NCBI GenBank assembly: GCA_963778565.1
Contig: CAVZUZ010000012.1
Coordinates: 1,400,827-1,464,826 of the forward strand
Length of the DNA: 64,000 bases
Reading direction: 5' to 3'
Origin: Thermoanaerobaculaceae bacterium
GTDB taxonomy: Bacteria; Acidobacteriota; Thermoanaerobaculia; Multivoradales; UBA5704
The position numbers were made by a program, and so were the translations under genes. Below are positions 18,286-49,941 of the stretch, one piece after another (the stretch's first letter is position 1; the number at the start of each line of letters is the position of its first letter). A model generated the notes under the pieces. It did not search any database, was not told the origin of the DNA, and saw nothing but the letters and a program-made list of their open reading frames with translations.

Positions 18286-18912
18286 TCAGCTCCGTCTTCT
18301 CTGGTTCCTGATCCGGTACAGGCGCTCCGTGAAACCACCCTCTGCTTCGAAGGCCTGCGCCTGAGCTGCCAACTGGCGATCGAGCAGGTAGCAGCAGAGG
18401 TTCAACAAAGAGAGGGCCGCATTGGCCACCAAGGTGGAAGAGCTCAGGGACTGACACGGACCTTCACGGACGGACACGGCGACTTCTCTCCCGTCCGTGC
18501 TCGTCTGTGTCCGTCCCTGCTCGTCCTCAACCCAAAGGCGCACCTCCTCCACCGTAGCGCAACGCCTCGCCTTGAAACGCACCAGGGCCGGGTGATCCGG
18601 TGGAAGAAGGGGCAGCCCCCGTTGCCGCAGGAAGTCTTCGTAGTCGAGCCGCATCTCCTCCAGACTGGCCCGCGCCACGTTGGTCAGCTTGAGCTCCGTC
18701 TTCTTCGAAGTGCCCGACGCCTGGCTCCCCTCGGCAATGTTCTGCACCCCGCTACGGGCAGCCTGCACCATCTGGTCGCGGGTTCGGCTTCGGCGCTCGA
18801 CGTAGCGCTCGCAGAAACGTACCGTAACGTCGTAGGTCAGTTGAGCCAACTGGAAGCTCCTCAGCTTCCGGTATCCGCCGTGCTTCGGGATCAGGGGCTC
18901 ATCGGTGCTCAC
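18286..18912 (-). CDS. four-helix-bundle protein (TIGR02436-like) with C-terminal suffix domain
   Basis: GTG start at 18912 preceded by AAGGAGGG RBS; YRKLRSFQLAQLTYDVTVRF...QNIAEGSQASGTSKKTELKLTNVARASLEEMRLDYEDFL matches four-helix-bundle family; upstream part of 462-aa ORF is composition junk. Confidence 0.6.
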   Translation of the reverse strand: MSTDEPLIPKHGGYRKLRSFQLAQLTYDVTVRFCERYVERRSRTRDQMVQAARSGVQNIAEGSQASGTSKKTELKLTNVARASLEEMRLDYEDFLRQRGLPLLPPDHPALVRFKARRCATVEEVRLWVEDEQGRTQTSTDGREVAVSVREGPCQSLSSSTLVANAALSLLNLCCYLLDRQLAAQAQAFEAEGGFTERLYRIRNQRRRS

Positions 18913-18934
18913 GATCCCTCCTTGGTCTTTCAGG

Positions 18935-19547
18935 CTAGGCCGACCCGATGCCAACCATGAAGTCGTACCCATCCGGGCCGCAGACTCTCTCGAGCGCAGC
19001 GAGCACGCGTTTGGATTTGGCCGCCGTGTCACGAGGCCCCGAGATGTAGAGAGGCTTGCCGTCCTTGCCGTACGGGAAAACGCGGTCGCCAAGGCGAGGG
19101 TCGACGCCGGCGAAGATCCGGCTCGCCACGGGATAATCATGATGCGGTGACAGGCCGAACTGCTGAGCGTACGCGACAGCGCCCTCGACCAGAGCTCGCG
19201 CGTTCGCCGCTGAGAGAGCTGCGAATGAACCATCTGCCGCGAAGCGGGTTCTCTGACGGTACTCGGCGGTTGCGAAGACGCCGAAGACCACATCCTTGAC
19301 GCCGAGGCAGAAGACGTCCAACAGAAACGTCGCCATGGCGATTCGACCGGCCCCAAGCTCTCGGGCGACCACGACGTTGCCGAGCCCGAGGCTCGAAGAG
19401 GCTTCGTGGGATCAGGCACTCGTAGATGGGAGAATCCGCCGGCACCGTGGGGAAACGCACCTGCGGCAGGTTCGGGCCCGCCGCTTGGCGCTTCGCTTTC
19501 CGGCGCGCAGCGGCCTTCTGCTCGCGACGCTTGCTGGGTTTTCCCAT
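18935..19547 (-). CDS. hypothetical protein, apparent frameshift near 19395 (basic N-terminus plus conserved-looking C-terminal domain)
   Basis: ORF 19137..19547 gives MGKPSKRREQKAAARRKAKRQAAGPNLPQVRFPTVPADSPIYECLIP then degenerates; ORF 18935..19372 frame continues ...EASSSLGLGNVVVARELGAGRIAMATFLLDV... upstream of its annotated start, so the two probably form one roughly 200-aa protein. Confidence 0.4.
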
Positions 19548-19672
19548 TGCTGTAGCCTTGCCTCTGCCGGGAGCTGACTGGAGAGACTCTACATGGAGGA
19601 GCTCTCGACGGCGGCGCGGGGGTTATGACGTAGAATAATCTCTCCATTCGGGCACCACCGGAGCCGCGTGAC

Positions 19673-20680
19673 ATGTCTCAGGATTCGAAGCGTCCCGACG
19701 TCGAACCGATGACGCGCGGTGTCTCCGAGGGCAGAGGCGCCTCCTCCGTCTCCGCGAGAGATTTCGCGGCAGACGATCGCTGCCGCTTCCGGCCCAGCAC
19801 GGTGGCGGGAGTCCGCATCGTCGCCAGGCTGACGGCTCGCTGCATCTTCCTCTGCGAGCACTGCCTGGCCAGCGCGGCGGGGAACGTCCGTTCCAGCGAC
19901 CGCAGCCTCGGCGATTGGCAGCGCATCCTGTCCGGGCTCCGCGGGATCGCCGCCCACAAGGTACTGCTGACCGGCGGCGAGCCCCTCCTCTTCGACGGCC
20001 TCGTCGAGCTCACCGCCCACATCGCCGAACAGGGCGTGAGCACCGATCTCAACAGCACTCTCTGGTCGATGACTCCGCGTCTGGCCCGGCGTCTCGCTGC
20101 GGCCGGCCTGACGGAGGCGTCGATCTCGCTGGAGGGGCCGGAGGAGGTTCACGATCGGCTGCACGGGCGCTCCGGCGCCTGCGCTCGTCTGAAGGCCGGG
20201 GTGCGGATGCTGCAAGACGTGGGCTCGATCGTGGACGGCTCGATGTGCGTTACGCCGATGAACCTGCCTCACGTGGCCTCGATGATCGAGGAGGCCGCGC
20301 GGATGGGCCTGGCCTCCTTCACGGTCTCGCGGATGATGCCCGTCGGACATGGGCTCAGCTGGGTCGGGCCCCGTGTCCCGCAGGAGAGCCTGACCGCGCT
20401 CCACGCCGATCTGGCGTCGGCCCGCGCCGGGGGATGCGGCATTCCCGTCCGCTGCGTCGGGCTTCTCGGCGCCCCCGGACCTCATGAATGCGAACAGGGG
20501 CGCACCCTGATCGGCATTCGCGCCGACGGGACGCTCGCGGCGTGCCCCCTCTCCCGGGACGACCCGCGGGGAGTGCCGAAGCCCGAGGAGGTGGGATTGG
20601 CCGCGGCCGTCGCGGCCGTGGGCGAATCCCTGCGAGCGCTGGCTTCGCCACGGATGTGCTATGGCCTGGAGGATCTCTGA
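19673..20680 (+). CDS. radical SAM/SPASM-domain protein (rSAM-1)
   Basis: 335 aa; CIFLCEHC (CxxxCxxC) radical SAM cluster motif; C-terminal Cys-rich CEQGRTLIGIRADGTLAACP SPASM/twitch-like region. Confidence 0.75.
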   Translation: MSQDSKRPDVEPMTRGVSEGRGASSVSARDFAADDRCRFRPSTVAGVRIVARLTARCIFLCEHCLASAAGNVRSSDRSLGDWQRILSGLRGIAAHKVLLTGGEPLLFDGLVELTAHIAEQGVSTDLNSTLWSMTPRLARRLAAAGLTEASISLEGPEEVHDRLHGRSGACARLKAGVRMLQDVGSIVDGSMCVTPMNLPHVASMIEEAARMGLASFTVSRMMPVGHGLSWVGPRVPQESLTALHADLASARAGGCGIPVRCVGLLGAPGPHECEQGRTLIGIRADGTLAACPLSRDDPRGVPKPEEVGLAAAVAAVGESLRALASPRMCYGLEDL

Positions 20681-20681
20681 A

Positions 20682-21692
20682 ATGACGATTCCCGCCTCGA
20701 CAGGCTCCATCCGCGAGGGCGCTGACCGCACCTGCCGCTTCCGGCCGATCGAGGCCGGCGGCTTTCGGGTGGCCCTCGAAGTGACCCGCCGCTGCAACCT
20801 CGCCTGTCTCCATTGCTTCGTGCCCAACGAGCCGCGCGATCCGGCCCTCCCGACATTGCTGGGCGTGCTGGGCGCCCTCGCCGGGCTCGGAGGCCGCAAA
20901 GTCATCCTGACCGGTGGCGAGCCCCTGCTCCGGGCCGACCTCGAGGAGATCATCCGCGCCGCCGCCGGCGCAGGCATGGGGGTCGACCTGAACAGCAACC
21001 TCCTGGGCCTGGACGATCGACGGGCGGACGCGCTCGTGGAGGCGGGCCTGGGCGAGGCAAGCGTGAGCTTCTACGGCGATCGGGACTTCCACGACCGGTT
21101 CGTGCGCCGCGCCGGGGCCTTCGACGAGGCGCTCGCGGCCTGTCACCGGCTGCGTGAGCGGCGCGTCGATCTCGACGTCCACGGGCCCGTCTGGGCCGGT
21201 AACCTCGGCTTCGCGGCAACGATCCACGACCTGGCGTGCTCGATGGGCGCCAAGAGCCTCACCCTCTTCCGCGTCATCGGGCTCGCCGGCACCGAGAACG
21301 GCAGGGTCTTCGCGGCGACCCGGTTCGGCGCCCATGTCGACGGCTTCGGCTCGCCGCCCGAGGACGAGCTGCGGCTGGCCATCCAATCCCTGCGGGAGAA
21401 GGCCCGGCTCCCCGTCCGGACGATCGGTTTCTGGGGCGACGACGTCTGCCGCGAGTGCGAGCAGGGAAGGTCGATCGTAGGCCTCGATTCGAATCTCAAC
21501 CTCTCCCCCTGCCTCCTCTCCCGGCGGCTCGAGCCGCTGCGGCGGACGGTCACGCAAGAGACGCTGGCAACGACCCTCGGAGCGCTCCGGGACGAGGTCC
21601 GGCGAGGCCTCTGGGCTCCGGTCTGCGTGCCGCCGCGGGAGGACGCGGCGACGGGGACCGGCGCGGCGGAGAGGGTGGAAGACGCGCGATGA
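20682..21692 (+). CDS. radical SAM/SPASM-domain protein (rSAM-2), paralog of rSAM-1
   Basis: CNLACLHC motif; C-terminal CRECEQGRSIVGLDSNLNLSPC; start ATG 20682 has GGAGGAT RBS (alternative ATG 20661); stop overlaps next gene. Confidence 0.75.
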   Translation: MTIPASTGSIREGADRTCRFRPIEAGGFRVALEVTRRCNLACLHCFVPNEPRDPALPTLLGVLGALAGLGGRKVILTGGEPLLRADLEEIIRAAAGAGMGVDLNSNLLGLDDRRADALVEAGLGEASVSFYGDRDFHDRFVRRAGAFDEALAACHRLRERRVDLDVHGPVWAGNLGFAATIHDLACSMGAKSLTLFRVIGLAGTENGRVFAATRFGAHVDGFGSPPEDELRLAIQSLREKARLPVRTIGFWGDDVCRECEQGRSIVGLDSNLNLSPCLLSRRLEPLRRTVTQETLATTLGALRDEVRRGLWAPVCVPPREDAATGTGAAERVEDAR

Positions 21693-23906
21693 GGGCCCTG
21701 CCCATCCGGGTCCTGGCCATGATCTACCCGATCGAGCGGCACGTGGGGCATTGGGCCTGCCCGTCACCTTCGATCGACCTGGTCAGAGTGCTGATGGAGG
21801 GGGAGGACCTCGAGGGCCGGGTGCTGGAGGCCGTCAGACGGCACGATCCGCAGGTGGTCGCCATCATCGGCAAGCGACCCGGAGAGTATCTCGATCTCCT
21901 GGACCGGCTCGCGCCGCGCGTGCCCTCGCTGGCCCGCGTACCGCGGGTCTATCGCTGCCAGAACACGGTGCTCGCGGCGCGCCTGGGAAGCGGCGGGCCG
22001 GCACCGGCCCGGGAGGAGCTGGCCGCCCTCAGCCACTGGTTCGCGTTCGCCTGCGATCCCCGGTTTTCGCTCGTTCTGGTGCAGACCCTGGACGACGTCG
22101 AGCTGATCGCGCGGGCCCTGGCGCCGACCCGGGTCGCGCCATGCCCCTACGGCTACGACCCGGCGGTTTTCGATCCGGAGCTTCCCCGAGCTGCAACGGT
22201 CCGTCGACGTCGGGTGCTACTTCAAGCTGCGCGACGATCCGCGGCGCCGGCGCCTGGTCGAGACCGCCGAGAGGATCTGCCGGCGGCGCGGCTGGACGTT
22301 CCTTTTCGTCGAGGGCCGCTACGGGCACGACTACGCCCGCCAGATCCGCGAGACGAAGGTTTGTCTCCACCTCTCGGGCCTGCGGGAAGTCCCGTTCCGG
22401 ATGTACGAGACGACCGCGCTCGGGGCGCTCTTCCTGACGGATCCGCTCCGTTGCCGGGTCGAGACGCTGTTCGAGCGGGGCCTGGAATACCTCACCTACC
22501 GGCCCGACCTCTCGGACCTCGAGGAAGTCCTGGAATCGGTGCTTCTGGATTCTCGACGGCGGCAGGAGATTGCCCGGCGGGGGAAGGCGAGGGCGGCCGC
22601 GTACGCCTGGCCGGGCATCGCGGAGCGCTGGGTGGTGCCGGCCCTCGATTCGATCCTGGCCGCCACTCCCGCCATCGATCCCACCGAGCACTTCCGGGGC
22701 GAGGTCGGGCCGATCGAGCACCCGGAGCTGCAGGAATGCGGGATCGATATCCGCAACATCGGCTGGACCCTCGGCAACGAGTGCCCCTACCGCTGCACGC
22801 ACTGCTATTCCATGTCCGCTCGGCGCAAGGGCAGGGATCTGTCGGTGCCGCTCGTCGATCGGATCGTCGACCAGTTGGCCCGCAACGGCGTCGAGACGGT
22901 CAACCTGGGGGGCAATGAGCCGCTCTTCACCAACGGGCCGGATCCCCGGCACAGCCTGCTTCACTACATCATCGAGAGGCTGGCCGGCGCGGGGATCAAG
23001 GTCGGCCTCACCACGGCCGGCATCACGCTCGTCCAACTGGTCCGGCACCATCCCGAGGCCGCCCGCCGGCTCAACGACGTCGACGTCAGCCTCGATTCCC
23101 CCTTCGCGGAGGAGCACGACCGCAACCGCGGCGCTCGCCTCTATCCGCAGGCGATCGAGGCGCTGGAGATCTGCGGCAGGTTGGGCGTGGACCGCTCGAT
23201 CATCATGTGCGGCATGAGTTGGAACTTCACCCCTCGCCACCTCCGGGCCCTGGTGAGCGTGGCCCGCCGTCACCAGGCCCACGTCCGGATCAATCCGCTC
23301 AAGCCCGTCGAGCCCGGCCACGCCGCCTCCGCCCTCGAGCCCGGCCAGTACTACGCCGGGTTCTCGCTGCTCATGGACCTGTGCGACCCCGTCGACCTCG
23401 GCGAGCCGCCCCTGGCGACGATGATGCGGTTTCAAGGGGCGCGCGGCTGCCCCTGCGGCCGGACGTCCTTGCGGATCCATTCCATCACGCCCGAAGGCCG
23501 GGTCCCGGTCTCGCCCTGCGTCTACCTGCACGACTACAAGGTCGGCGACCTTGCGACGGACGAGCTGTACGACATCGTCCGGTCACCGCAGTTCCGCTCC
23601 TTCCGGCAACGCAACGCGAACCCGCACGTCATCCCCGGTTGCGAGGGCTGCCCCGTGCTCGACTTCTGCCGGGGAGGATGCGCTGCCCGGTCCTACCTCC
23701 ATCACGCGCACGCGACCGGCGAGCGCTCCCTTTTCCAGCGCGATCCCTACTGCCCGGTGGAGATCGCTCCCGGAGACCCCTTCCCGGTCGAGCCCCGCCT
23801 GCCCCGGGATATGGTCCTCGTCCATCGGGACTATCTCTGCACCTGGATCGGCACGCCCAAGGCCATGGCGCCGGAGGCATCCCGGGAGGCATCTCCATGC
23901 ATGTGA
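21689..23906 (+). CDS. CgeB-like glycosyltransferase fused to radical SAM/SPASM domain (rSAM-3), apparent frameshift near 22190
   Basis: N-terminal frame (from ATG 21689) MRALPIRVLAMIYP...; after a 1-nt offset near 22185-22195 the frame of ORF 22401..23906 is open upstream and reads ...VDVGCYFKLRDDPRRRRLVETAERICRRRGWTFLFVEGRYGHDYARQIRETKVCLHLSGLREVPFRMYETTALGALFLTD (CgeB-family GT motif R.YE..A.GA.L.TD) continuing without stop into CPYRCTHC radical SAM core and Cys-rich SPASM tail. Confidence 0.6.
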
Positions 23907-24967
23907 TGACGCTCGACGATCTCGAGACCTACACGAAACCGCTCTGCTCGGCACCCCAGTACGCGCGGAAGGTCGAGAACTTCCGCCGAGTCGAGCGCTC
24001 CTTCCTGCGGCGGGACGAGCGCTGCGAGGGCCGGCCGGTCCACCTTCACCTGGAAGCGACGGGAGACTGCAACCTGCCCTGTCCCATCTGCCCGCGGGGC
24101 CGCGGCCACATCGAACGCACCGGGCATCTCCCCTTCGACGTTTTCGAGAAGCTGTTCTCGGAGCTGTCGGACGGGCTCTGCAACATCGTCATCAGCGGTT
24201 GGGGAGAGCCGCTCCTCAACCCGGCGACGACGGCGATGATCGCCCACGCGACCCGCCACGCGGTCCCGGTCTTCCTGAACACCAACGGGACGGTCCTCGC
24301 CGGCAGAGTGGAGGAGCTCCTGGACGCCAGGCTGACCCTGGTGAACGTCTCCATCGACGGCGCCGTCTCGCGGAGCACGCACGTCTACACGCAGGCCGCT
24401 CCGTTCGAGCGGGTGATCGAAGGCGTCGCCCGGCTGCGGCAGGCGAAGGACCGCCGCGGCTGCCGCCATCCTGTCATTCACGGCCAGTTCATCGTCAACG
24501 AGGGTACCGTCGACGAGATCGAGCCGTTGACGAAGTGGGCCTTCGACCTCGGCGTCGATCACGTCAAGTTCAAGCGCCGGCACCACACCATGCCGGGGCA
24601 GGAGGAGAGGAGCAAAGTGCTGTCCGTCGACAAGCTGCTGGAGATCACGCAGCGGCGAAGGCTGGAGAGCTGGCGAGAGGACCTCGGCTTCTCCCACGTC
24701 ACCTGCGCCCATCCGTGGCACTCGGTCTACCTCGGGTGCACGGGGAAGCTCGGCCTTTGCAGTTGGGATCCCCATCAGGTCGTGACCCTGGGCAGCACGG
24801 ATGAAGACTTCGAGTCGATCTGGAACGGCGACGCGATGCGAACGGTCAGGAGATGGCATACGGGGAGGGACCCGGAGGTCGGCGACCCGTGCCTGAAGTG
24901 CAACCGCCTGCCGGGCTACCTGCACCACGAGGACGCGGGCGAGCGGGAGCCCACGGCGCACGTTTAG
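23897..24967 (+). CDS. radical SAM/SPASM-domain protein (rSAM-4)
   Basis: start ATG 23897 after GGGAGG; CNLPCPIC motif; C-terminal CAHPWHSVYLGCTGKLGLCSWD...CLKCN SPASM motif. Confidence 0.8.
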   Translation: MHVMTLDDLETYTKPLCSAPQYARKVENFRRVERSFLRRDERCEGRPVHLHLEATGDCNLPCPICPRGRGHIERTGHLPFDVFEKLFSELSDGLCNIVISGWGEPLLNPATTAMIAHATRHAVPVFLNTNGTVLAGRVEELLDARLTLVNVSIDGAVSRSTHVYTQAAPFERVIEGVARLRQAKDRRGCRHPVIHGQFIVNEGTVDEIEPLTKWAFDLGVDHVKFKRRHHTMPGQEERSKVLSVDKLLEITQRRRLESWREDLGFSHVTCAHPWHSVYLGCTGKLGLCSWDPHQVVTLGSTDEDFESIWNGDAMRTVRRWHTGRDPEVGDPCLKCNRLPGYLHHEDAGEREPTAHV

Positions 24968-24993
24968 CGCGCCGCGAGAGGACGTTCGGCAAG

Positions 24994-25998
24994 GTGAGCG
25001 AGACGACTGCGGGGCGGCGGGTCCTGTTGGCCGGCCACCGAGCCTACTCCGCTCGGGGGCTGAGGGAGCTCCTGTGCCGGCAGGGCCACGAGGTCGTCGG
25101 CTTCAGCAGGGGGCCGGTGGAAAGGCAGGACTTCACGGCGACCGGCCCGGTCGACGGGCTCGATCGCCATCCGCGTCTCCGGGAGACGTTCGATACCCTG
25201 ATCAATTTCGTCGTCCTCAGGTTCGAGAGCCGGCACCGCAATCTCGCCTACCTGGACGCGGTGCTGCGGTTCTGCCGCAGCCACCGGGTAGGGCATCTGA
25301 TCCACATCTCTTCGATGAGCGTGTACCGCGACTCGGTGCGCCTGGTCACGGAACGGGCGGCGACGCAGCCCGCGCCGGCCGGGAGCGCCACCTATGCGGC
25401 GATCAAGCTCGCCGGCGAGACTCGCCTGCGCGACAACCTCCCCGCCGGGACGCGGCTGACGCTCATCCGTCCCGCGTGCATCCTGAGCGCCGACATGCCC
25501 CACCCGCTGGGCAGCGTGGGGGAGCGCCTGGCCTCCGGGAAGGTGCTGGTGCTGGGCAGGCCTTCCCGGCAGCGGCCGGTGATCGGCCGCAGCGTCCTGC
25601 AGCGCGCTCTCGGCCGTCTCGTCTCTTCGCCTCCGGTGGGGAGCCACGAGGTTCTCCTCTTCGTCGACCGGAACTCCCCGACGTGCATGGAGTACCTTCA
25701 GGCCTGCTGCGAGCTCCTGGGAAGCGGCACCGGCGCGGTCTCGCGCCCCGCTCCGGTCTGGATCGCCCGCCTTCTCCTCCGCGAGCTGCGGCGAGGCGGA
25801 CGTCCGCCGCGGCAGGCCGTCGCCAGGGGGCTGTCCACGGTCCGCCAGCGGTGGACCGGGCAACGGTACGACCCCCGCTGGACGGAGGAACGGCTCGGCA
25901 TGCCGCTCGCCACCCGCTGGCTCGACGAGCTGGCGGGAGCCTCCGATCATCAGATCGCCGCCGGCTCCACCGGCTGCCGGCGGGCGGCCGAGTCGTAG
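24994..25998 (+). CDS. NAD-dependent epimerase/dehydratase family protein
   Basis: GTG 24994 start; VLLAGHRAYSARGLRELLCRQGHEVVGF Rossmann-like N-terminus; length and composition consistent with SDR-extended sugar epimerases; start uncertain. Confidence 0.45.
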   Translation: MSETTAGRRVLLAGHRAYSARGLRELLCRQGHEVVGFSRGPVERQDFTATGPVDGLDRHPRLRETFDTLINFVVLRFESRHRNLAYLDAVLRFCRSHRVGHLIHISSMSVYRDSVRLVTERAATQPAPAGSATYAAIKLAGETRLRDNLPAGTRLTLIRPACILSADMPHPLGSVGERLASGKVLVLGRPSRQRPVIGRSVLQRALGRLVSSPPVGSHEVLLFVDRNSPTCMEYLQACCELLGSGTGAVSRPAPVWIARLLLRELRRGGRPPRQAVARGLSTVRQRWTGQRYDPRWTEERLGMPLATRWLDELAGASDHQIAAGSTGCRRAAES

Positions 25999-26981
25999 GC
26001 GGCCTCGATGACGGCCAGGGCCCGAATGGCGTCCGCGGGACCGGCCCGCAGCGGCGCCCCTGCCCTGAGATGGTCGGCGAAGTTCTCGAGCAGGCGGATC
26101 TTCATGTCCGCGACGCTGAGCCGCGGCAGCTCGTATTCCCGCAGGAAGCGGATGCGGTCGAAGCACTTCAGCGGGCTGCCCAGCTCGAGAAAACCGTCGG
26201 TGCCCATCACCACGTCCTTCGGCCCCGCGATGGGAAACCGGCCCACGCCGTAGGCGCAACAGGCCGCCTCGATCACGCCCAGCGCGCCGCTGCGGTAGCG
26301 GAGATCGACCAGGGCAATGTCCTCCACCTCGACCTCGTGGTGCAGCGTCGCCGTGCGGGCGAAGACGTCCGCCACTTCCAGGCCGGTGACCCAGGCCATC
26401 AGGTCGACCTGGTGGATGCCGTTCATCAGCAGCACGCCGCCGCCGCTCGTCTCCTTCCTGCTCCGCCAGGACGATGGATATTCCTCGCAGCGCATGCCGT
26501 GCTCCCAGTAGGCCCTGGATTTGTAGCCGAGCGCGGAGACACGGGTGAAGACGGTGCTGCCCAGCGTCCCCTCGGAGAGGATCTCCCGGGCCCGCTCGGC
26601 AGAGGGAAGAAAGCGGCGCTCGAGCCAGGGCGCAATGCTGACTCCGCACTCCCGGCCGACCTCCACCAGCTCCCGGGCCTGGCCGACGTTCAGGGTGAAC
26701 GGCTTCTCGAGGAGAACGTGTTTGCCGGCGCGCGCGGCCCGGGTCGCCATCTCCAGGTGAAGGTGGTGCGGCACGGCCAGCGAGACGGCCTCGATCGCCG
26801 GGTCCTCGAGCAGGCGTTCGGGCTCCGAGGTCCAAGGTAGGCCGAAACGCTCTCCCAGCATCTTGGCGGCCCTCGGCTCGGCGTCGGCAACCATGCGGAA
26901 GCTCGACCCGCGGGGATTCCCGCATCGCCTGGGCGTGGAGCTTGCCTGCCGCTCCGCAGCCGACGAGTCCCGTCCGAATGG
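25950..26981 (-). CDS. Gfo/Idh/MocA-family oxidoreductase (WbpB-like sugar dehydrogenase), apparent frameshift near 26895; continuous in-frame with upstream DegT gene
   Basis: N-terminal Rossmann TGLVGCGAAGKLHAQAMRESPRVEL in the 1283-aa ORF frame (TTG 26981 with GGGAGGAGAG RBS), then frame break; ORF 25950..26894 continues MVADAEPRAAKMLGERFGLPW...HLHLEMATRAARAGKHVLLEKP (Gfo/Idh/MocA EKP motif). Confidence 0.65.
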   Translation of the reverse strand, partial: PFGRDSSAAERQASSTPRRCGNPRGSSFRMVADAEPRAAKMLGERFGLPWTSEPERLLEDPAIEAVSLAVPHHLHLEMATRAARAGKHVLLEKPFTLNVGQARELVEVGRECGVSIAPWLERRFLPSAERAREILSEGTLGSTVFTRVSALGYKSRAYWEHGMRCEEYPSSWRSRKETSGGGVLLMNGIHQVDLMAWVTGLEVADVFARTATLHHEVEVEDIALVDLRYRSGALGVIEAACCAYGVGRFPIAGPKDVVMGTDGFLELGSPLKCFDRIRFLREYELPRLSVADMKIRLLENFADHLRAGAPLRAGPADAIRALAVIEAAYDSAARRQPVEPAAI

Positions 26982-28149
26982 GCTCGCTCAAGCGCGGCTC
27001 TCCTCCCGGAGCCGATCGAGCGTCTCGAGGATCACGCCGGCATACCGGTCCACGAGCTTCCGGCTCGTAGGCCGTGAAGGCGTCGAGGAAGAACACCCGC
27101 CGCATGACGTCCTCGGCCGTGAGCCACGGCCCGCCCGGCCGCAGGTGGCCGGCCAGCGAAGGCAGATCGGCGAGGTAGCCGGCGACCCTTCGCGCGCGGA
27201 CGCCGCGGGCCTGCAAGGCGTCCACGAGCCGGTCGCGGAGGGCGCCGCTCGCGCCAGCGGCCAGCAGCAGCTCGTTGCGGAAGTAGACGCGGCCGGCGGG
27301 CGGGCGATCCAGGTTGGCGAAGCATCCTCGCTCGCGAAGGCGAGCCCGCAGGTGCTCGCACGCCCGCTTGCGCACGGCGGCCTGCTCCGGCAGGTCCTTC
27401 AGGGACTCATGCGCCAGGGCCACGAGGATCGGGGAAGGGATGAGCTTGAAGCCACGGCCGACGCCGGCGAGCGCCCTCCTTTCAGGCGGCGCCGCCAGCA
27501 GCCGGCGCGGATGGCCGAGCTCCATGGCCCGATAGTACAGGTCGTCGCGGTCGGTCAGCAGGGCCCCTCCCTCGCCGCCGGAGACGAGCTTCGCCGCCTG
27601 GAAGCTGCAAAAGGACACGTCGCCATAGCTCCCGACCGGCCGCCCGCCGAAAGCGGCGCCGTGGGCGTGCGAGACGTCCTCGACCAGCGCCAGGCCGTGC
27701 TCGTCGCACAGGGCCCGCAGCTCGTCCAGGCGCAACGCTTCGCCGAACATGTGCGTCACGACGACGGCCCGCACCGTGCCGTCCAGCAGGCGGCGCACCG
27801 CTTCCGGGTCGATGTGGCAGGTGTCGGGCAAGACATCGGCCAGGGCGACGCGCGCTCCGCACTGCACGGCCGGCAGCACGGAGGCCCAGTGCCCGATCGC
27901 CGACGCGATCACCGTGTCGCCCGGGCCGACGCCCAACGCCTTCAGGGCCGAGAAACAGGCCGACGTGCCGTTGACGCAACTCAGCGCACGGCGGACGCCG
28001 AAGAGCGCGGCCACGTCCCGCTCGAACGCCTCGAGCGTCTCCGGATGCCAGGACGTGGCTCCGGCCTGCAGGAGCCCGGCCACCCGTTCGAGAGCCCGGC
28101 TGCCGATCCGGGGCCATTGGAAGAACGCGGCTTCGTCCTCAAGGCTCAT
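26982..28149 (-). CDS. DegT/DnrJ/EryC1/StrS-family PLP-dependent sugar aminotransferase (WbpE-like); no stop before the Gfo/Idh/MocA domain (possible fusion)
   Basis: ATG 28149 after GGGAGG RBS; MSLEDEAAFFQWP...GDTVIASAIGHWAS...DVSHAHGAAF...SFQAAKLVSGGEGGAL (PLP-lysine region); 389 aa to the start of the oxidoreductase domain with no intervening stop codon. Confidence 0.7.
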
Positions 28150-29030
28150 GGGAGACAGACCTCCCTGCCATCCTGCCTGCTGCGGGCGGCCTTTCTTTCG
28201 ATATCGTGCCACAATTGACCCAGGGTCTGAGATTCTATCCCTCTCGACAAGGTGAGATGTCGAAGCAGCCGATCGAAGCCTTCCACCTTGCCGCCGTCTT
28301 TCGCGGACGACGGTCCGTCTTTCCCCACCCTCAGAAAAGAGAAACTGTGGGCCGCAAAGGTCAGGTATCCATACCCGATGCTCAGGGCTTCGTCCGCAAA
28401 CGCCGCCAGCAATTCGGCAGGCCCCTTGTCGATATCGAATTTCATCCTGCGGGGTGCACCGTTTGCGTCCGCTACATTGAACCATGAGATCGGCAACTCC
28501 CATGAGCCATCGCGTTCCGCCAGCTCGAATTTCGTCCAATCGACATGGCAGTACCTGTGGCCGTAGAGGCTCGAGCTGTCCAAATGGATCCCGTTCTCCC
28601 TCAGCGCCACGATCGACTCCTCGTTCGCCGCGTAATACCCGGCCCGGTGGGCGACCACTCTCCTGCCCGTCCACGCCTCGAGCTTCTCCTTGCCATGGCC
28701 GATGAGCTCGGTCTGCTCCTGCAGCGGGCTGTCGCACAGGAACGGCTTTCCCGTCACGAACGACGGATGGGTGTGCAGTTGAACGTCGTGGCCCCTCGCG
28801 AGCATCTCGTCGCACATGGCGGCCATCAGCTTTTCACCGATGACCTTGTACTCGAACACATTGACGAAGAACGTTGCCCTGATCCCGTAACGCTCGCAGA
28901 TCTCCATCACCAGCGGAAAGCCGCAGTGCACGCCCTCGCACGTGCACCAGGCACCGTTCGGGTACTTCACCAGGGGTCCGGGCGCCTGGGTGAAATGCTC
29001 GGTGTCTATGGTTACGATCAGCTTGCTCAT
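28146..29030 (-). CDS. polysaccharide deacetylase-like (CE4-like) family protein
   Basis: 294 aa; IVTIDTEHF N-terminal motif and His-rich segments; stop overlaps DegT start (ATGA). Confidence 0.45.
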   Translation of the reverse strand: MSKLIVTIDTEHFTQAPGPLVKYPNGAWCTCEGVHCGFPLVMEICERYGIRATFFVNVFEYKVIGEKLMAAMCDEMLARGHDVQLHTHPSFVTGKPFLCDSPLQEQTELIGHGKEKLEAWTGRRVVAHRAGYYAANEESIVALRENGIHLDSSSLYGHRYCHVDWTKFELAERDGSWELPISWFNVADANGAPRRMKFDIDKGPAELLAAFADEALSIGYGYLTFAAHSFSFLRVGKDGPSSAKDGGKVEGFDRLLRHLTLSRGIESQTLGQLWHDIERKAARSRQDGREVCLP

Positions 29031-29926
29031 AGGCTCGCGAACACTGACCGCAACGCGGTCCCCACCACCGCCCTGGACAGCTCGTGGTTGACGTAATCGT
29101 GCGCCTCCACGTTGGCTTGCGGAGCGGATGACGTAATCTGCCTCATGGCCTCCAGGATGTCGTCATCGCATGCCGCCAGGCGGCAATGCGGATACGCGTA
29201 GCTGTAGATGACTTCCTTCCCTTTGCCCATGGCCTCGATCACCATCATGGAGAGCCCGTCATGTTCCGGGGTCCTCAGCAAGATGCTGCATTTGGCGTAC
29301 AGCGCAGCCATCTCCGGCCCCGACAGCCAGCCCCGGTAGTGAATGTTGTCGAGCGTCGGCTCTCCGGCCCCATCGTTGCCGGTTATGTAGAAGGGAATCC
29401 CGGGAAACCCCCTGGCGGCGGCAACCAGGCCGTCGATGCCGTAGAACCGCGACTTGCCCGTGGGCAGAAGGCTCACCACGGCATGCGCCGCGGGCGGCCG
29501 GTCCAACGCCATGTCCTGGTCGAAAGAGATGAGGGGGATGACGTCCGCGTGAATCCCATGGTCCCGCAATTCGGCGGCGATCCAGGGGGCGCACGCCAGG
29601 TGCCTGGTGATGGCTTCGTAACCCGCATCCTCATTCACAGGACCGAGCTCGAGCACATCGGAGCCGATCCAGTGATTGACGTACGGTTTCTTCGTCAGAG
29701 CTGCGAATCGCAGGTACTCGCTGCCGTGCTTGTTACGGCCGAGGTTGTACAACACGTCGGCGGCCTCCAGCAGATGGCTCTGAACCGAAAGCGGCACGTT
29801 CTTCTGAGCTTCAATGACCTGAAAGCCCTCGTGGCGCAGCAACCTGGCTACTTGCGGGGCCTGGCACGTATCGTGTCTGTAGTCCCCGATGAGACCGATT
29901 CTCGGCATATGGATTCCGATCATGGG
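29027..29926 (-). CDS. glycosyltransferase family 1 (GT4-like)
   Basis: C-terminal LLRTPEHDGLSMMVIEAMGKGKEVI matches the GT1 E-x7-E region; start chosen at internal ATG near the upstream gene stop. Confidence 0.6.
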   Translation of the reverse strand, partial: PMIGIHMPRIGLIGDYRHDTCQAPQVARLLRHEGFQVIEAQKNVPLSVQSHLLEAADVLYNLGRNKHGSEYLRFAALTKKPYVNHWIGSDVLELGPVNEDAGYEAITRHLACAPWIAAELRDHGIHADVIPLISFDQDMALDRPPAAHAVVSLLPTGKSRFYGIDGLVAAARGFPGIPFYITGNDGAGEPTLDNIHYRGWLSGPEMAALYAKCSILLRTPEHDGLSMMVIEAMGKGKEVIYSYAYPHCRLAACDDDILEAMRQITSSAPQANVEAHDYVNHELSRAVVGTALRSVFASL

Positions 29927-31170
29927 CCGATCTCGGCAGCCAGCGACCGTGACTCCACGATATTGTCCTCCATCGAGCAGTACTTCCAGCCTCCATACCT
30001 GCCGATGCTGTAAACACCCCGTGCGCACCACTCACGGTGGAAGCGCTCGTACAGCGCCCGGGACTCCGGAGTGATGTGGACATAGGCGGGGTCCATCACG
30101 ACATGATGATGTGAAACCAGGTTCTGCGTCGTGACGACGCCGGTCGCGGCGAGCCCGTCCAGGATGCCTTGAAGCGTATCTGCGAAGTCGATCTCGGCCT
30201 TCGCGCTGAAGCCGCTCTCCACGTAGAGGCTCATGCGATGGTGGGGAACGACGTTGTCGTAGTAGCCCACGCGATAGAACGGGTACTTCTTCTCGGGGAA
30301 GTACACCCAGTGCAGGCGATCGTTTCCTTTTGCGTCGAAGCCGAGGTTGAGGGCCAGGACCTTGCTGGCGGACAGGCGCCTCGCCGCCTCGGCCTCGCCG
30401 ACGCAGGCCAGCATCGTCGTAAGCGGGGCGGAGGAGACCAGGTAACGAAATGTAATCTCCCGTTGGTTCGTGGTGGCGACGCGCGCTTGCAGGTCGACCC
30501 TCTCCAGGCGCTCCCCATACGAGAGCCTGCCGCCATCCAGGTCTCGCAACAGGGCCTCGACGTACTGAAAGGCACCGTCCCGCGGGTACGTAAACGTGGT
30601 GTTGTAGGACTTGTCATCGGGCCGCTTGAAGTTCCTTATGATGTCGTCGACGCCGGCCGCCGGAAAAAACCTGCCCATGGCTTCCGGAGCCAAGGATGAA
30701 AGGTCCGTCGCCAGGATCTTTTCGTTGTAGGGCACGAGGAATCTTTCAGCGATCCCTTGCCCGAATCGCTCGTAGAGCATGGCCCTGAACCCGCAGGCCC
30801 CCTGCGGACTCTCTCTGAAATAGAGGTGATACAGGCAATCGATGAATTCCTGCTTGGGCAGTTGATGGATGTTCTTCTGAAAGGGATAATCGATGAAACG
30901 GCCCCGGTAATGGATGGCGGCGCATTTGTGGATGCGCACGACGGCATCAGGGGGCATTCTGGACAGCAGGAAGCTCTCGATACCCGCGTTGCGGAAATGA
31001 AAGAAGTGTCCTGAATAGTCCCAGGTGAATCCCGCCTGGTGAATGGTCTTGCAATACCCCCCGGGCTGAGGGTCTCTCTCGATGATCAGGTAATTGTCGG
31101 AAGCGAGGAAGTTGGCGAACGCCAACCCGGTGACCCCCGCGCCGACGATCAGGTAATCGACGTCGGCCAT
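29920..31170 (-). CDS. FAD-dependent oxidoreductase, UDP-galactopyranose-mutase-like/amine-oxidase-like fold
   Basis: 416 aa; DYLIVGAGVTGLAFANFL dinucleotide-binding motif; C-terminal GRYGGWKYCSMEDNIV resembles Glf-type flavoenzymes. Confidence 0.55.
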   Translation of the reverse strand: MADVDYLIVGAGVTGLAFANFLASDNYLIIERDPQPGGYCKTIHQAGFTWDYSGHFFHFRNAGIESFLLSRMPPDAVVRIHKCAAIHYRGRFIDYPFQKNIHQLPKQEFIDCLYHLYFRESPQGACGFRAMLYERFGQGIAERFLVPYNEKILATDLSSLAPEAMGRFFPAAGVDDIIRNFKRPDDKSYNTTFTYPRDGAFQYVEALLRDLDGGRLSYGERLERVDLQARVATTNQREITFRYLVSSAPLTTMLACVGEAEAARRLSASKVLALNLGFDAKGNDRLHWVYFPEKKYPFYRVGYYDNVVPHHRMSLYVESGFSAKAEIDFADTLQGILDGLAATGVVTTQNLVSHHHVVMDPAYVHITPESRALYERFHREWCARGVYSIGRYGGWKYCSMEDNIVESRSLAAEIGP

Positions 31171-31209
31171 TCGCTCAGTCCGTGCCGCCGGCGGCGTGGA
31201 ACGAATGGC

Positions 31210-32309
31210 TCAGCACGGTGACCTCCCAAGGTTCGCGAAGAATTCTGCCACCGTCGAGAAGGGCTCCTCGCACAGCTCGTGCTCCTGCCTGTGCTCCTGG
31301 ATGCCGCGATACCCCGTACAGGCCCGGCACACATCGCTGAAGCGCGCCTCGCAGTGGCTGAGCAGCAGGTCGATATAGCGGTCGTTGTCGAGGGAATAGA
31401 TCTGCTCGAACCGTTCTCGCGAGAGGTCGCCGATGACCATCGTGGCGTTGCCGTCGTCGGCGTAGCACGCATTCAACCGGCCATCGGGCAGCACCGTGTG
31501 CTTGTGAAACAGAAAGGCGCAGGGAATGCTTCCTTTGCTCGTCTGTGGCTTTAAATGGATGTCGAGCGAACGCAGGTCGCCGGACGTGATGAGACCGCCC
31601 CAATTCGAAAACCGGTCATGTGGGATTCGCACTCGAACCCGGCGTTGCTCGAGGTCCTCGAGCAGCTCGCGCAGACGGGGATGGCAGTCTTCCGGGCGAA
31701 AGGACGCGGCGGTCCGCAAACGCACTTCGACCCGCGCGGCCACGTCGGGCCAGTCGCTCAGCGATTCGAGATTTCGCAAGACGGTGTGGAAAAGCTCCGG
31801 CCGAGCCCGAGTGATCGCCGCGAACGTGTCCTCGTCGTGTCCGTAGACGCTGACCGACAGCCAACCCAGCTTCGTGAGCCGCCTGAGACGATCGCGGGCA
31901 GGCCGCGACAGCACGGTCAGGTTGGTACAGAATGAAAAGCCGGCTACGCCTCGGTGCCGCTCCAGGAGCGCTCGAGCTTGTCCAGAAACCGCGGGTCGAT
32001 GAACGCCTCGCCCAGGATGGGTGTCAGGCCGAACCGCGTGAATCCGTACTCGCAGGCCTTGTCCACAACCTCTGCGAAGAGCGCGTCGGGCATGATCTGA
32101 CGCGGGATGGACGTCTTCGGATACGCACAGAAGCGGCATTTCAAATTGCAGATCGTCGAAGGCGTGATGTACAGGCGTTCGGTCAGGCTCGGCACGCGCA
32201 GTTGGCTTACGTGGGCGATTCGGCGCAGGATGCGCGCGAGCTTGTCGTCGCGCGAGGCGGGTACGTCGGCGAGCCGAGCCTGAGAACCGTCAACCATCAG
32301 TCGTCTCAC
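31210..32309 (-). CDS. radical SAM domain protein (rSAM-5), apparent frameshift near 31975
   Basis: ORF 31944..32309 gives ITPSTICNLKCRFCAY (CxxxCxxC) ...AEVVDKACEYGFTRFGLTPILGEAFIDPRFLDKLERS then stops; ORF 31210..32139 frame continues ...LLERHRGVAGFSFCTNLTVLSRPARDRL... ; the two overlap in an LERS/LERH window consistent with a 1-nt indel. Confidence 0.65.
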
Positions 32310-32398
32310 CCCATGCGGGACGAGCGCTGATCCTAGCGTCGCCGCACGGCCTTGTCAAAGCGGCGGCGCTGGCCCGGAACCGTGAATGAACCTTCGCC

Positions 32399-44837: not shown

Positions 44838-47800
44838 GTGGCGGAAGAGAGCTGGGAGTACATCGTCGTCGGCTCGGGGGCAGGAGGCGGCCCGGTGGCC
44901 GCGAACCTGGCCCGCGCGGGCTACCGGGTGCTGCTGCTGGAGGCCGGCGGCTCGCCCAACAGCTGGAACTACGACGTGCCGGCGTTCCATCCCGGCGCGT
45001 CGGAAGAGCCCGACATGTCCTGGGCGTACTACGTCCGGCATTACACCGACCAGGAGCAGCAGGAGCGGGACACCAAGTTCGTGGCGAAGAAGAACGGCAT
45101 CTTCTATCCCCGGGCCGGCACCCTGGGCGGCTGCACCGCCCACAACGCCATGGTCTTCCTCTATCCGAGCAACAGCGACTGGAACAACGTCGCCGAGCTG
45201 ATGCAGGACGACTCGTGGAAAGCCGGCAGGATGCGCCGCTACTTCGAGCGGCTGGAGCGCTGCGACTACCGTCCGGTCCAGCGCTTCATCCAGCGGCTGC
45301 TGGGATGGAACCCGAGCCGCCACGGCTTCAGCGGCTGGATGGCCAACAACCAGTCGGACCCCAAGCTGATGGAAGGCGACGACGAGCTGGAGAAGATCGT
45401 CATCGACTCGACGCTCAAAGTCCTTTTCGGCACCTTCAACCTCCGGCGGATCTTCAACCGCATCGTCACCGGCCTGCTCACCAAGCTCGACCCCAACACC
45501 TGGCTGCTGGTACGCAGGAACGCCGAGGGCGTGCGGCTGACGCCGATCTCGGTCAACGGCAGCTACCGCAACAGCTCCCGGGAGCGGCTCCTGGACACCA
45601 TGAAGGAGTTCCCCGACAAGCTCACGATCCGGACGGGGGCCCTGGCCACCCGCGTGCTGTTCGACGGCGAGATGCGCGCCGTCGGCGTCGAGTACCTCGA
45701 GGGCGAGCACCTCTACCTGGCCGACCCGCTGCACGATCCGGACAAGCCGGGCGTGCTGCGGCAGGCGCGGGCGTCGCGCGAGGTCATCCTCGCCGGCGGC
45801 GCGTTCAACTCCCCGCAACTGCTCCAGCTCTCGGGAATCGGCCCGGCCGAGCTGCTCGAGAAGCACGACATTCCGGTGCTGGTGGATCTCCCCGGCGTCG
45901 GCAAGCACCTCCAGGACCGCTACGAGACCTCGGTCGTGCTGGAGATGAAAAAGCCGTTCACGATCCTGAACGGCGCCACCCAGGTCCCTCCGCAGCCGGG
46001 CAAGCCGGTGGATCCCCAGTTCGTGCAGTGGCTGCAGGGCAAGGGCGTCTACACCACCAACGGCTCGGTCCTCGCCATCATCAAGAAGTCGGTGCCCTCC
46101 CGCCCGATCCCCGACCTCTACATCTTCGGCCTGCTGACCAACTTCTACGGCTACTTCCCGGGCTACGCGAAGGTCATCCAGGCGGCCCACTCTTTCTTCA
46201 CCTGGGCCATCCTCAAGGCCCACACCCTCAACACCGCCGGCCTGGTGGCCATCACCTCGAACGATCCGCGGGACGTGCCGTACATCAACTTCCATTACTT
46301 CAACGAGGGCAACGACACCAACGGCGACGATCTCGAGTCGGTGGTCCAGGGCATCCTGTACGCCCGCCAGATCGTCCGGGGCTACGCCCATCTGGTCAAG
46401 CGGGAGACGAAGCCCGGCAACGCCGTCCAGACCGTGGACCAGATCCGCGAATACGTGCGCAACGAGGCCTGGGGGCACCATGCCTCCTGCACCTGCGCCA
46501 TAGGACCGCGGAGCGACCCGGATGCGGTGCTCGACACCAACTTCCGCGTCTATGGAACCAAGAGCCTGAGGGTCGTCGACGCGTCGGCGTTCCCTCGCAT
46601 TCCCGGCATGTTCATTGTCTCGGCGATCTACATGATCGCCGAGAAGGCGAGCGACGTAATCCTGGCGGACGCCGAGCGCGGATCCGCCGGCAACCAGGGG
46701 AAAGAACCCATGAGCAACGACGATTCGGGCAAGACGAAAAAACGCGGGTGCCTGTGGTGGCTGCTGGCGATCGTGCTCCTGCTGGTCGTGGTGTGGGCGA
46801 TCTGCCGCTTCACCGCCGACCGGCCGGTCGACTACAGCTCCGACACCGATCACTTCAAGTACGGCTCGATCGGCAGCGAGCCCGGCGGCTCGCTGCTCAA
46901 TACCGTCGGCGGCCTGCTGCCGCCGGAGCCGATCTTCAAGGTGCTGCCGCAGGTCTGCTGGGACATGATCCCCCCGGGCGGCTACGCCTCCCTCGGGCTG
47001 TTGAGCGAAAAGGGGCACGAGCTGCCGATCGGCGTCTCGCAGCGGTTCCGCCTGGGCTTCGAGCAGGTGGGGCTCAACTGCGCGGTCTGCCACGCCGGCA
47101 CCGTGCGGGCGACGCCCCAGAGCCCGCCGCAGATCATCCTCGGCATGCCTTCGCAACAGCTCGCCCTGCAGGACTTCTTCCGCTTCGTCATCGACTGCAC
47201 GCTCGACCCGCGCTTCACCGCCGACAACCTGTTCGGCATCATGGAGCGGCAGGGGATCGAGCTCGGCGCGCTGAACAAGCTCCTCTACCGCGTGGCGGTG
47301 ATCCCGCAGACGCAGGCGAAGACGCTGGCGCTCCAGCGGCAGCTCCAGTTGCTGCTGAGCCCCGAGCTGACGCAGTGGGGCCGCGGCCGCGTGGACACCT
47401 TCAATCCCTACAAGGGGATGCAGTTCAACTGGCAGCTCCAGCGGCTGTCGCGCCAAGAGCTGACGGCGTCCTCGGACTTCCCGTCGATCTGGAACCAGGC
47501 GCCGCGGGAAAAGGCCAAGATGCACCTCCACTGGGACGGTGACAACGACTCGGTGGACGAGCGCAACCGCAGCGCCTCCCTGGGCGCCGGCGTGACGCCG
47601 GTCACCCTCGATTACGACCGCCTGAACCGGGTCAAGGACTGGATCATGGGGCTGCCGCCGCCGCCCTATCCGTTCGCCATCGACCCGGCGCGGGCGGCGC
47701 GCGGGCGCGCGGTCTACCGCGCCCAGTGCCAGGCGTGCCACGCCGACGACCAGTTCAAGAAAGGGATCATCAACGGCGCGCCGCGCGTCGGCCAGGTGGA

Positions 47801-48230: not shown

Positions 48231-48247
48231 TGCAGGAGGAACAAGGA

Positions 48248-49739: not shown

Positions 49740-49941
49740 AGCTTCGGACATTTCCCTGCCAATCCGGGGGCGGCGCCGGCACGCGGCCGCCCCCTGAGCC
49801 CCGCCTCCGCTTCCTCCATTCCGGTGGTAGAATCGGCTCCCGGATCATCCAGACTACAAGACTGAATGACGCTGGCAGGACGACTTCGAGGGTCGTCTGG
49901 TCCATGAAGATGTTCCAAGTGGTGGCGGGAGGAATCAAGGA

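Follow-up and report, generated by a model that had tools for sequence, protein, structure and literature searches.

In mycothiol and bacillithiol synthesis the retaining GT-B glycosyltransferases (GTs) MshA and BshA (family GT4) transfer N-acetylglucosamine, and this step is followed by N-deacetylation; the deacetylases MshB and BshB are of the LmbE type, a family separate from that of the NodB-type enzymes. A GT, a deacetylase and a radical S-adenosylmethionine (SAM) enzyme, hereafter rSAM enzyme, act sequentially on one sugar in the hopanoid cyclitol ether pathway (HpnI, HpnK and HpnJ) and in butirosin synthesis (BtrM, BtrD and BtrN), and we know of no fused GT-rSAM protein in either of these pathways. 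Here we describe a gene on a 64,000 bp stretch of the genome of a Thermoanaerobaculaceae bacterium (contig CAVZUZ010000012.1, 1,400,827 bp–1,464,826 bp), which we refer to as a whole as the window and in which positions are counted from the first nucleotide. After correction of a single base this gene encoded a protein of 738 amino acids (aa), in which a GT-like half was followed in the same reading frame by an rSAM/SPASM half. We consider it likely that this fusion is encoded in the organism and, with less assurance, probable that it is translated as one chain.

The locus resembled the hopanoid and butirosin systems in that GT, deacetylase and rSAM types were found together in one cluster. 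The families differ from those in the window, as HpnI belongs to GT2, HpnK is YdjC-like, HpnJ is a B12-type rSAM enzyme and BtrN is a twitch-type rSAM enzyme. Structurally, the modelled GT half was most similar to MshA and BshA, and the pairing of these two enzymes with the deacetylases MshB and BshB has a counterpart in the orthologous clusters, where a deacetylase gene comes directly after the GT gene. However, MshA and BshA shared 10–16% identity with the modelled GT at a template modelling (TM) score of ~0.55, the cluster in the window had five rSAM enzymes and no thiol-pathway genes, and its deacetylase was of the NodB type (PF01522), unlike MshB and BshB.

The GT half had been called CgeB-like in an earlier reading of this DNA made from its letters and open reading frames (ORFs), hereafter the sequence-only reading. 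It shared with the proteins of PF13524, a family that takes its name from the Bacillus subtilis spore-maturation protein CgeB, a C-terminal Rossmann domain above the Pfam cut-off and an R-x-[FY]-E-x4-G donor-binding-type motif that was invariant among the GT orthologues analysed here. It differed in that no DUF3880-type N-terminal domain was detected by Pfam, the only matches on aa 1–330 (E<=0.01) being to PF13524, and in that the GT was joined to an rSAM enzyme. Additionally, the host is a non-sporulating Acidobacteriota-type bacterium and the orthologues formed a tight family of their own (321–354 aa). The name thus applies to the PF13524 C-terminal domain only, the modelled fold being that of a generic GT-B enzyme.

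The rSAM half had the CX3CX2C core, the GGxE SAM motif and the CX2CX5CX3C SPASM signature of anSME (4K36-39), CteB (5WHY), PqqE (6C8V) and BlsE (7VOB), but its identity to these enzymes was 16–18%. It belonged to a very conserved family without a described function, which is known here from sequences and which we have designated rSAM412.

Reading frames, domains and junction of the fused gene

Analysis of the corrected protein with Pfam revealed Glyco_trans_1_2 (PF13524) at aa 201–304 (E 5.9e-13, 49.4 bits, gathering cut-off 25 bits), Radical_SAM (PF04055) at aa 361–509 (E 2.7e-17, 63.9 bits, cut-off 29.5) and SPASM (PF13186) at aa 593–655 (E 1.3e-8, 35.4 bits, cut-off 21.5). The NCBIfam SPASM model TIGR04085 also matched, with a score of 36.5 against a cut-off of 27. 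This agreed with the sequence-only reading, which had described a GT domain upstream of an rSAM core and a SPASM tail. All of the motifs that it had quoted were located in the sequence: RMYETTALGALFLTD at 22398–22442, CPYRCTHC at 22782–22805 and the Cys-rich tail at 23448–23753. It had also described the domains as fused without a stop, and one frame, frame B, did indeed encode the C-terminal domain of the GT as well as the rSAM/SPASM enzyme, with no stop codon between them. As these parts share frame B, the fusion is independent of the frame correction, which merely reattaches the GT N-terminal domain. In the public annotation this contig already has a 501-aa product (P0001), which starts at ATG 22401 and carries PF13524, PF04055 and PF13186.

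Frame B was uninterrupted from 22107 to the TGA stop codon at 23904–23906. From 22188 its codon-position GC content was 0.69/0.49/0.89, a coding profile, and from ~22188 its translation read ELQRSVDVGCYFKLRDD and went on to the end of the Cys-rich enzyme. The N-terminal Rossmann domain of the GT-like gene was encoded in a different frame, frame A, which began at ATG 21689 with the translation MRALPIRVL; this start codon overlapped the TGA stop codon of the preceding rSAM gene (ATGA). Up to ~22186 the codon-position GC content of frame A was of the coding type (0.77/0.48/0.87), and its translation was protein-like through YGYDPAVFDPELP. Past 22186 the third-position GC content fell to 0.47, the coding pattern was gone and the translation became Arg/Ala-rich. 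A tblastn search with the GT orthologues matched 21701–22186 in frame +2.

The sequence-only reading had corrected a single-nucleotide offset near 22190 to obtain a polypeptide of about 740 aa. The need for a one-base correction was confirmed by a gap-free alignment with the orthologues, while the position was revised to a CCCC run at 22184–22187. Deletion of one C from this run gave the 738-aa protein, in keeping with the length that had been proposed. An alignment of the corrected GT with 14 orthologous GTs, which spanned their full length, showed no gap at the offset site, where DPELPELQRS was aligned with the consensus DPDLPELERx. Identity to the orthologues (60–70%) and a strong coding signature were found on both sides of the run, with no further lesions. 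The frame correction is justified.

The apparent frameshift is probably an extra C that arose in sequencing or assembly, as indicated by comparison with other indels. The window contained no fewer than six isolated 1-nt indels (Table 1), about one per 10 kb, each of which split an otherwise intact conserved gene; these six were five insertions and one deletion. The genes encoding RecD2 and NtrC were intact (745/742 aa and 463 aa respectively) in two syntenic relatives, L055 and L056, which had 88–97% DNA identity to the window over 6.9–18.3 kb, and at both of these indel sites the window had exactly one base more than either relative. Four of the six indels were within a few bases of GAGCTT/AAGCTC (window positions 22178, 26899, 27054 and 31974). 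The identical change from GAGCTTC to GAGCTTCC was found at three of the four cluster sites, whatever the gene strand, and three of the five GAGCTTCC sites in the window were affected. The family-wise chance of any hexamer being near four of six random sites was ~0.008.

Consensus error fits these data better than biology, since six isolated indels were present in 64 kb and two of them were in housekeeping-type genes that showed no other degeneration. Likewise, a single change that recurs irrespective of gene strand points to a DNA-reading artefact rather than to independent decay. Together these data suggest a motif-linked, possibly methylation-linked, basecalling error at GAGCTT. Motif-linked and homopolymer consensus errors are known from nanopore assemblies (PMC6591954), a possible platform here, and the length of the contig, 1.51 Mb, fits a long-read assembly. 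Programmed ribosomal frameshifting was considered and rejected: the orthologues were unshifted single ORFs, and of the four GAGCTT-linked indels two were on the sense strand of their gene and two on the antisense strand.

At the junction, the GT orthologues finished at ...YVAPALxxLL plus 0–10 residues, the counterpart in the window being WVVPALDSILAA. The rSAM orthologues had a variable leader of 10–40 residues and were conserved from IDPxEHF, which in the window was IDPTEHF, encoded from 22674. The conserved GT and rSAM residues were in the same frame and 15 nt apart. None of the five linker codons was one substitution away from a stop codon, and no start codon was found between the end of the GT and IDPTEH. 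No + frame contained a stop codon between 22438 and 22915, and the nearest stop codons of the other frames were at 22435, 22916 and 23215; a single indel therefore cannot separate the two halves.

The families of the two halves

The GT motif RMYETTALGALFLTD contained an invariant E-x-P-x-R-x-x-E...G pattern; an alignment of 15 sequences showed E233, P235, R237, E240 and G245 to be invariant. The spacing of this donor-binding-type motif was E-x6-E, compared with E-x7-E in the classic GT4 motif, and the C-terminal domain closed with a terminal helix, ...ERWVVPALDSIL. The corrected GT half (328 aa) had 47 standalone homologues of 200–354 aa with 49–70% identity. About 40 of the 47 were full-length (321–354 aa), most covered 95–99% of the query and all except one fragment had a precomputed PF13524 match. 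An AlphaFold2 (AF2) model of the GT half had a predicted local distance difference test score (pLDDT) of 88 and a predicted TM score (pTM) of 0.83. The best 50 matches of this model in a Foldseek search of the PDB were all GT-B proteins, the closest being MshA (3c4q, E 1.8e-10), methylmannose polysaccharide mannosyltransferase, PimB' and BshA (3mbo, E 4.7e-9). As modelled, the GT half has a GT-B fold, with two Rossmann-like domains and a C-terminal helix that crosses back, and glycosyl transfer is its predicted activity.

An alignment of the rSAM412 family showed the cysteines of CX3CX2C and the sequence NLGGNEP (GGNEP at 22908–22922) to be invariant. The same was true of the SPASM pattern C448/C450...C471, C512-x2-C515-x5-C521-x3-C525 and C549; the SPASM cysteines were at 23448, 23454, 23517, 23640, 23649, 23667, 23679 and 23751. 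More than 119 standalone orthologues had 54–72% identity, and the family was represented in Actinomycetota, Pseudomonadota, Acidobacteriota, Nitrospirota and Planctomycetota. The AF2 model of the rSAM half had a pLDDT of 92.9, and Foldseek identified BlsE, a cytosylglucuronate decarboxylase (7vob, E 8e-14), as its closest match, followed by anSME, CteB, PqqE, MoaA, viperins and DesII; by profile the half was closest to anSME. None of the NCBIfam equivalogs came near its cut-off. The best was the mycofactocin maturase MftC, an identity that was rejected as it reached 90.2 bits where the cut-off was 265. An assignment to the prokaryotic viperins (pVip) and thus to anti-phage defence was also rejected, PADLOC giving 31–33 bits only, from the N-terminal rSAM core (profile positions 2–112 of ~260).

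Other copies, rival explanations and a proposed role

The full corrected protein was used to search 5.8 billion proteins, of which the best 120 of 250 matches were analysed, and the 572-aa frame-B product served as the query for HMMER against 1.84 billion representatives; here the best 150 matches were analysed, and Pfam was run on every long one. Several results of these and other comparisons weigh against a genuine bifunctional fusion. Among the best 120 of 250 matches, only P0001 had PF13524; the other 119 were standalone rSAM/SPASM proteins of 406–490 aa with 59–72% identity. All 47 matches obtained with the GT half alone as the query were standalone GTs. No GT-rSAM fusion was present among the best 150 of the 1.84 billion representatives or at 44 species-representative genome loci, and a junction-specific scan of JGI metagenomes, which had limited sensitivity, yielded only a GT orthologue and no fusion among the matches listed. 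P0001 was the sole member of its cluster and came from one contig, so that the fusion was seen once. This GT was found within 10 kb of rSAM412 at none of 42 species-representative genome loci, which implies that the two enzymes are not obligate partners. A start at GTG 22632 would give an rSAM protein of 424 aa, a normal length for the family and within the 406–441 aa of its orthologues. Additionally, an assembly this prone to error lowers trust in any single-copy structural oddity, though it supports the frame correction, and the mechanism proposed below would draw on fold resemblance and gene neighbourhood.

A tblastn match over residues 1–524 had made L049 a candidate second fusion, and this was rejected as the locus had two separate adjacent genes, rSAM then GT. 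Nothing was found in the literature on GT-rSAM fusions, this cluster or PF13524. The statement of the sequence-only reading that no characterised example was known can thus be extended, as the protein, genome, metagenome and literature searches revealed no second example, either characterised or merely sequenced. Fusions of other kinds were seen among the long matches. P0175 (709 aa) had the rSAM412 family fused to a second rSAM domain, P0172 (475 aa) had it fused to an inorganic-pyrophosphatase-like domain and an rSAM-methyltransferase fusion was also present. Either the rSAM412 gene tends to fuse with its neighbours, or P0175 and P0172 are gene-calling artefacts. It is plausible that two enzymes of one pathway were joined in this lineage only; the GT-rSAM fusion is not a recurrent new architecture.

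If the frameshift were genuine and recent, the GT would be a pseudogene, only the rSAM/SPASM enzyme would be made, from GTG 22632/22635 or ATG 22401, and the missing stop codon would be a by-product of decay. The extra C is indeed in the deposited sequence, and the only product called there by the public annotation is that of 501 aa. The cluster holds four of the six frameshifts, as would be expected of a decaying island, and a GGAG lies 6 nt upstream of GTG 22632, the putative start of the family-length 424-aa protein. We consider this explanation unlikely, given that the coding signature and the 60–70% identity to orthologues persist on both sides of the frameshift with no other lesions, that similar 1-nt insertions occur outside the cluster in RecD2 and NtrC, both intact in close relatives, and that three of the four cluster sites show the same GAGCTTC event on either gene strand. 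Judged from the sequence, a standalone rSAM enzyme may still be made from the internal start, besides the fusion or in place of it. An artefact of assembly at the junction appears a shade less probable again; in that case the GT and rSAM genes would be adjacent but separate, and the consensus would lack a stop codon or a few bases between ~22640 and 22690. This reading is in line with an assembly indel rate of roughly one per 10 kb, the orthologues of both halves are all separate proteins and no second sequence confirms the junction. Against this, the verified errors were all single-base, and two genes would be restored only if 2 nt or more had been lost in a specific way. A single-base indel at the junction would extend the GT to 22916 or 23215 (80–180 residues) and leave the rSAM enzyme without a start codon. 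The conserved GT and rSAM residues share a frame at the short distance given above, and the linker had no GAGCTT and, except for one CCC, no homopolymer of 3 nt or longer. The junction is therefore probably not an assembly artefact.

A further alternative concerns the function of the protein. The SPASM rSAM enzyme could crosslink or epimerise a precursor peptide that the fused GT then glycosylates, as part of the maturation of a ribosomally synthesised and post-translationally modified peptide (RiPP). SPASM enzymes are often peptide maturases, and the best NCBIfam and PDB sequence neighbours of the rSAM half include MftC, anSME, CteB and SkfB. However, all equivalog scores were far below their cut-offs (MftC, 90 against 265), and the best structural match was BlsE, a nucleoside-sugar enzyme. 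In the standalone rSAM412 orthologues ~30 residues precede CX3CX2C, which leaves no room for a peptide-binding domain of the RiPP recognition element (RRE) type. No precursor gene was noticed, no systematic search having been made for one. The neighbouring genes encoded sugar and nucleotide enzymes (DegT, GFO/IDH/MocA, deacetylase, epimerase, pyrophosphatase and NUDIX), and DegT, GFO/IDH/MocA and the NodB-type deacetylase favour a sugar or nucleoside-sugar substrate over a peptide. Peptide maturation is thus very improbable here.

The explanation that we lean towards, and which we regard as plausible, is a lineage-specific 'Rosetta-stone' fusion, in which a rearrangement joined a GT gene to rSAM412 and the extra C is a sequencing or assembly error. 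The rearrangement would have placed the GT-like gene (~328 aa) right before the rSAM/SPASM gene (~410 aa), the most conserved one. Deletion of the GT stop codon and of the variable rSAM leader would then have given a 738-aa chain with five joining residues. The GT-B domain would move a hexose or N-acetylhexosamine from a nucleotide sugar onto a pathway intermediate, after which the deacetylase would act, as in the logic of MshA and MshB. The rSAM domain would cleave SAM reductively at the [4Fe-4S] cluster bound by CX3CX2C. With the 5'-deoxyadenosyl radical, and with two SPASM auxiliary clusters handling electrons, it could abstract hydrogen from the sugar or nucleoside-sugar moiety that the GT makes or uses; a shared sugar-bearing intermediate or the nucleotide-sugar donor are alternative substrates for this step. 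The outcome might be an oxidation, a decarboxylation, an epimerisation or a C–C rearrangement, and the fusion may simply tether two enzymes of one pathway.

The sequence-only reading had gone as far as coupled glycosyl transfer and radical chemistry on the same substrate. This stands as a reasonable, undemonstrated inference for this type of cluster and falls as a general property of rSAM412, given the 42 loci without this GT nearby. There is about an even chance that the 738-aa chain is made and is bifunctional, tethering two steps of a widespread, undescribed multi-rSAM pathway (amino-sugar, cyclitol or nucleoside-sugar). Were this true, the chain would be the first 'Rosetta-stone' clue that rSAM412 acts on a glycoside or nucleotide sugar, and it would offer a convenient single polypeptide for reconstituting the chemistry. 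A genuine fusion would link two widespread and uncharacterised families, a tight PF13524 GT family and an rSAM/SPASM family that shares about 60–70% identity across at least five phyla, and would suggest carbohydrates rather than peptides as the field of rSAM412 chemistry. Taken alone, it shows the domains of two known superfamilies rearranged in a single genome, and is a lead and not a discovery.

Gene cluster and neighbourhoods

The fused gene was part of an operon or island at ~19.6–32.4 kb that encoded five rSAM enzymes and sugar-type tailoring enzymes (Table 1). The orthologues of the two small rSAM genes in L001, L006 and L049 had 58–66% identity.

Table 1. Positions of the fused gene, its neighbours and the single-base indels in the window.
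Feature	Position	Strand	Evidence and remarks
GT-like gene, N-terminal Rossmann domain (frame A)	21689..22186	+	Translation, codon-position GC, tblastn, alignment, AF2 model
CCCC run with one C more than all orthologues, frameshift site	22184..22187	+	Directly 3' of GAGCTT (22178-22183)
GT-like gene, C-terminal Rossmann domain (frame B)	22188..22658	+	PF13524 at ~22290-22601; alignment, Foldseek
Possible internal start, GGAG (22622-22625) then GTG GTG (22632-22637)	22622..22637	+	Read from sequence
Five-codon junction, AATPA	22659..22673	+	Last conserved GT residues to first conserved rSAM residues; no stop or start codon
rSAM/SPASM enzyme, rSAM412 family	22674..23906	+	Pfam, NCBIfam, orthologues, AF2, Foldseek
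Two paralogous small rSAM genes	19673-20680, 20661-21692	+	Pfam; mutually overlapping, translationally coupled to the fusion gene
rSAM/SPASM gene, 356 aa	23897-24967	+	Pfam; downstream, same operon; tblastn L001, L005, L006, L049
NAD-epimerase-like gene	24853/25012-25998	+	Pfam; downstream, same operon; tblastn L001, L005, L006, L049
GFO/IDH/MocA	25950-26991	-	tblastn, Pfam; frameshift near 26898
DegT aminotransferase	26988-28149	-	tblastn, Pfam; frameshift near 27060
Polysacc_deac_1	28146-29030	-	tblastn, Pfam
Second, weaker PF13524-like protein	29027-30031	-	E 1.5e-6
Amine oxidase	29920-31170	-	tblastn, Pfam
rSAM/SPASM gene	31210 to ~32354	-	tblastn, Pfam; frameshift near 31971
Indel, RecD2 helicase	~14405	-	One Pfam domain cut between two frames
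Indel, NtrC-type sigma-54 activator	~16649	+	One Pfam domain cut between two frames
Indel, GT-like gene	22184-22187	+	Orthologue alignment
Indel, GFO/IDH/MocA	~26898	-	tblastn frame jump; collinear with orthologue after 1-nt correction
Indel, DegT	~27060	-	tblastn frame jump; collinear with orthologue after 1-nt correction
Indel, rSAM	~31971	-	tblastn frame jump; collinear with orthologue after 1-nt correction

A Gemmataceae contig (L001/L005), the ENA contig L006 and a JGI contig of 60 kb each had GT and rSAM412 in one type of cluster. The genes of this cluster were, in order, rSAM412, two small rSAM genes, DegT, GFO/IDH/MocA, GT (~340 aa), Polysacc_deac_1, an epimerase-like gene and further rSAM/SPASM genes. 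The Polysacc_deac_1 gene followed and overlapped the GT gene in the orthologous clusters. Outside the window, some five genes separated GT from rSAM412, or their order was reversed (L049), whereas the window had the same gene set in a rearranged form, with the GT directly upstream of rSAM412. The weaker PF13524-like protein of Table 1 was orthologous to an unannotated gene of 302–323 aa that came after the deacetylase/amine oxidase on L006 and on JGI contigs.

The rSAM412 family occurred in at least three types of neighbourhood. One, at 18 loci, contained a B12-binding rSAM gene of ~532 aa and in some cases (10 loci) a small pyrophosphatase gene as well, another contained a DegT-like gene and a 319-aa rSAM gene (13–14 loci) and the third was the GT/deacetylase cluster. 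Neighbours of rSAM412 elsewhere included pyrophosphatase, NUDIX, metallophosphatase and adenosine deaminase genes. In Actinoalloteichus rSAM412 was beside Tn3 and integrase genes.

By its PdxJ the uncultured host was placed among metagenome-assembled genomes of the Thermoanaerobaculia (Acidobacteriota), with 77–86% identity to the named matches. Synteny of the window with L055 and L056 (dTDP-sugar isomerase ... RecD2, NtrC, PdxJ) stopped directly after pdxJ (18285), and the rSAM/GT cluster was absent after pdxJ in both. The end of synteny at this point and the absence of the cluster from the relatives suggest that the region at 18286–32354 is an acquired island. At its borders a tRNA scan found no tRNA and a GC profile showed no sharp boundary. 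Between pdxJ and the cluster was a 462-aa ORF (18286–19674, - strand) that matched the 23S rRNA-intervening-sequence protein (IVP) family only below the threshold (30.7 against 33.8 bits), and L056 had a small IVP-like gene at the corresponding position.

Once corrected, DegT ended in a stop codon that overlapped the TTG start codon of GFO/IDH/MocA as TTGA (26988–26991, - strand), which is indicative of translational coupling. In the uncorrected assembly the DegT frame continued into the N-terminus of GFO without a stop, mimicking a second 'fusion'. No gene-level oddity on this contig should be trusted until its indels have been polished.

Further along the window, 44838–51426 (+ strand) contained a gene for a 1130-aa GMC-oxidoreductase with a C-terminal RoxA-like/cbb3-type cytochrome c domain. 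Two further proteins with RoxA-like cytochrome c domains followed it (48864–49739 and 49942–51426, + strand), and the frame indicated by third-position GC content (GC3) switched near 48900, which may mark a frameshift or a gene boundary.

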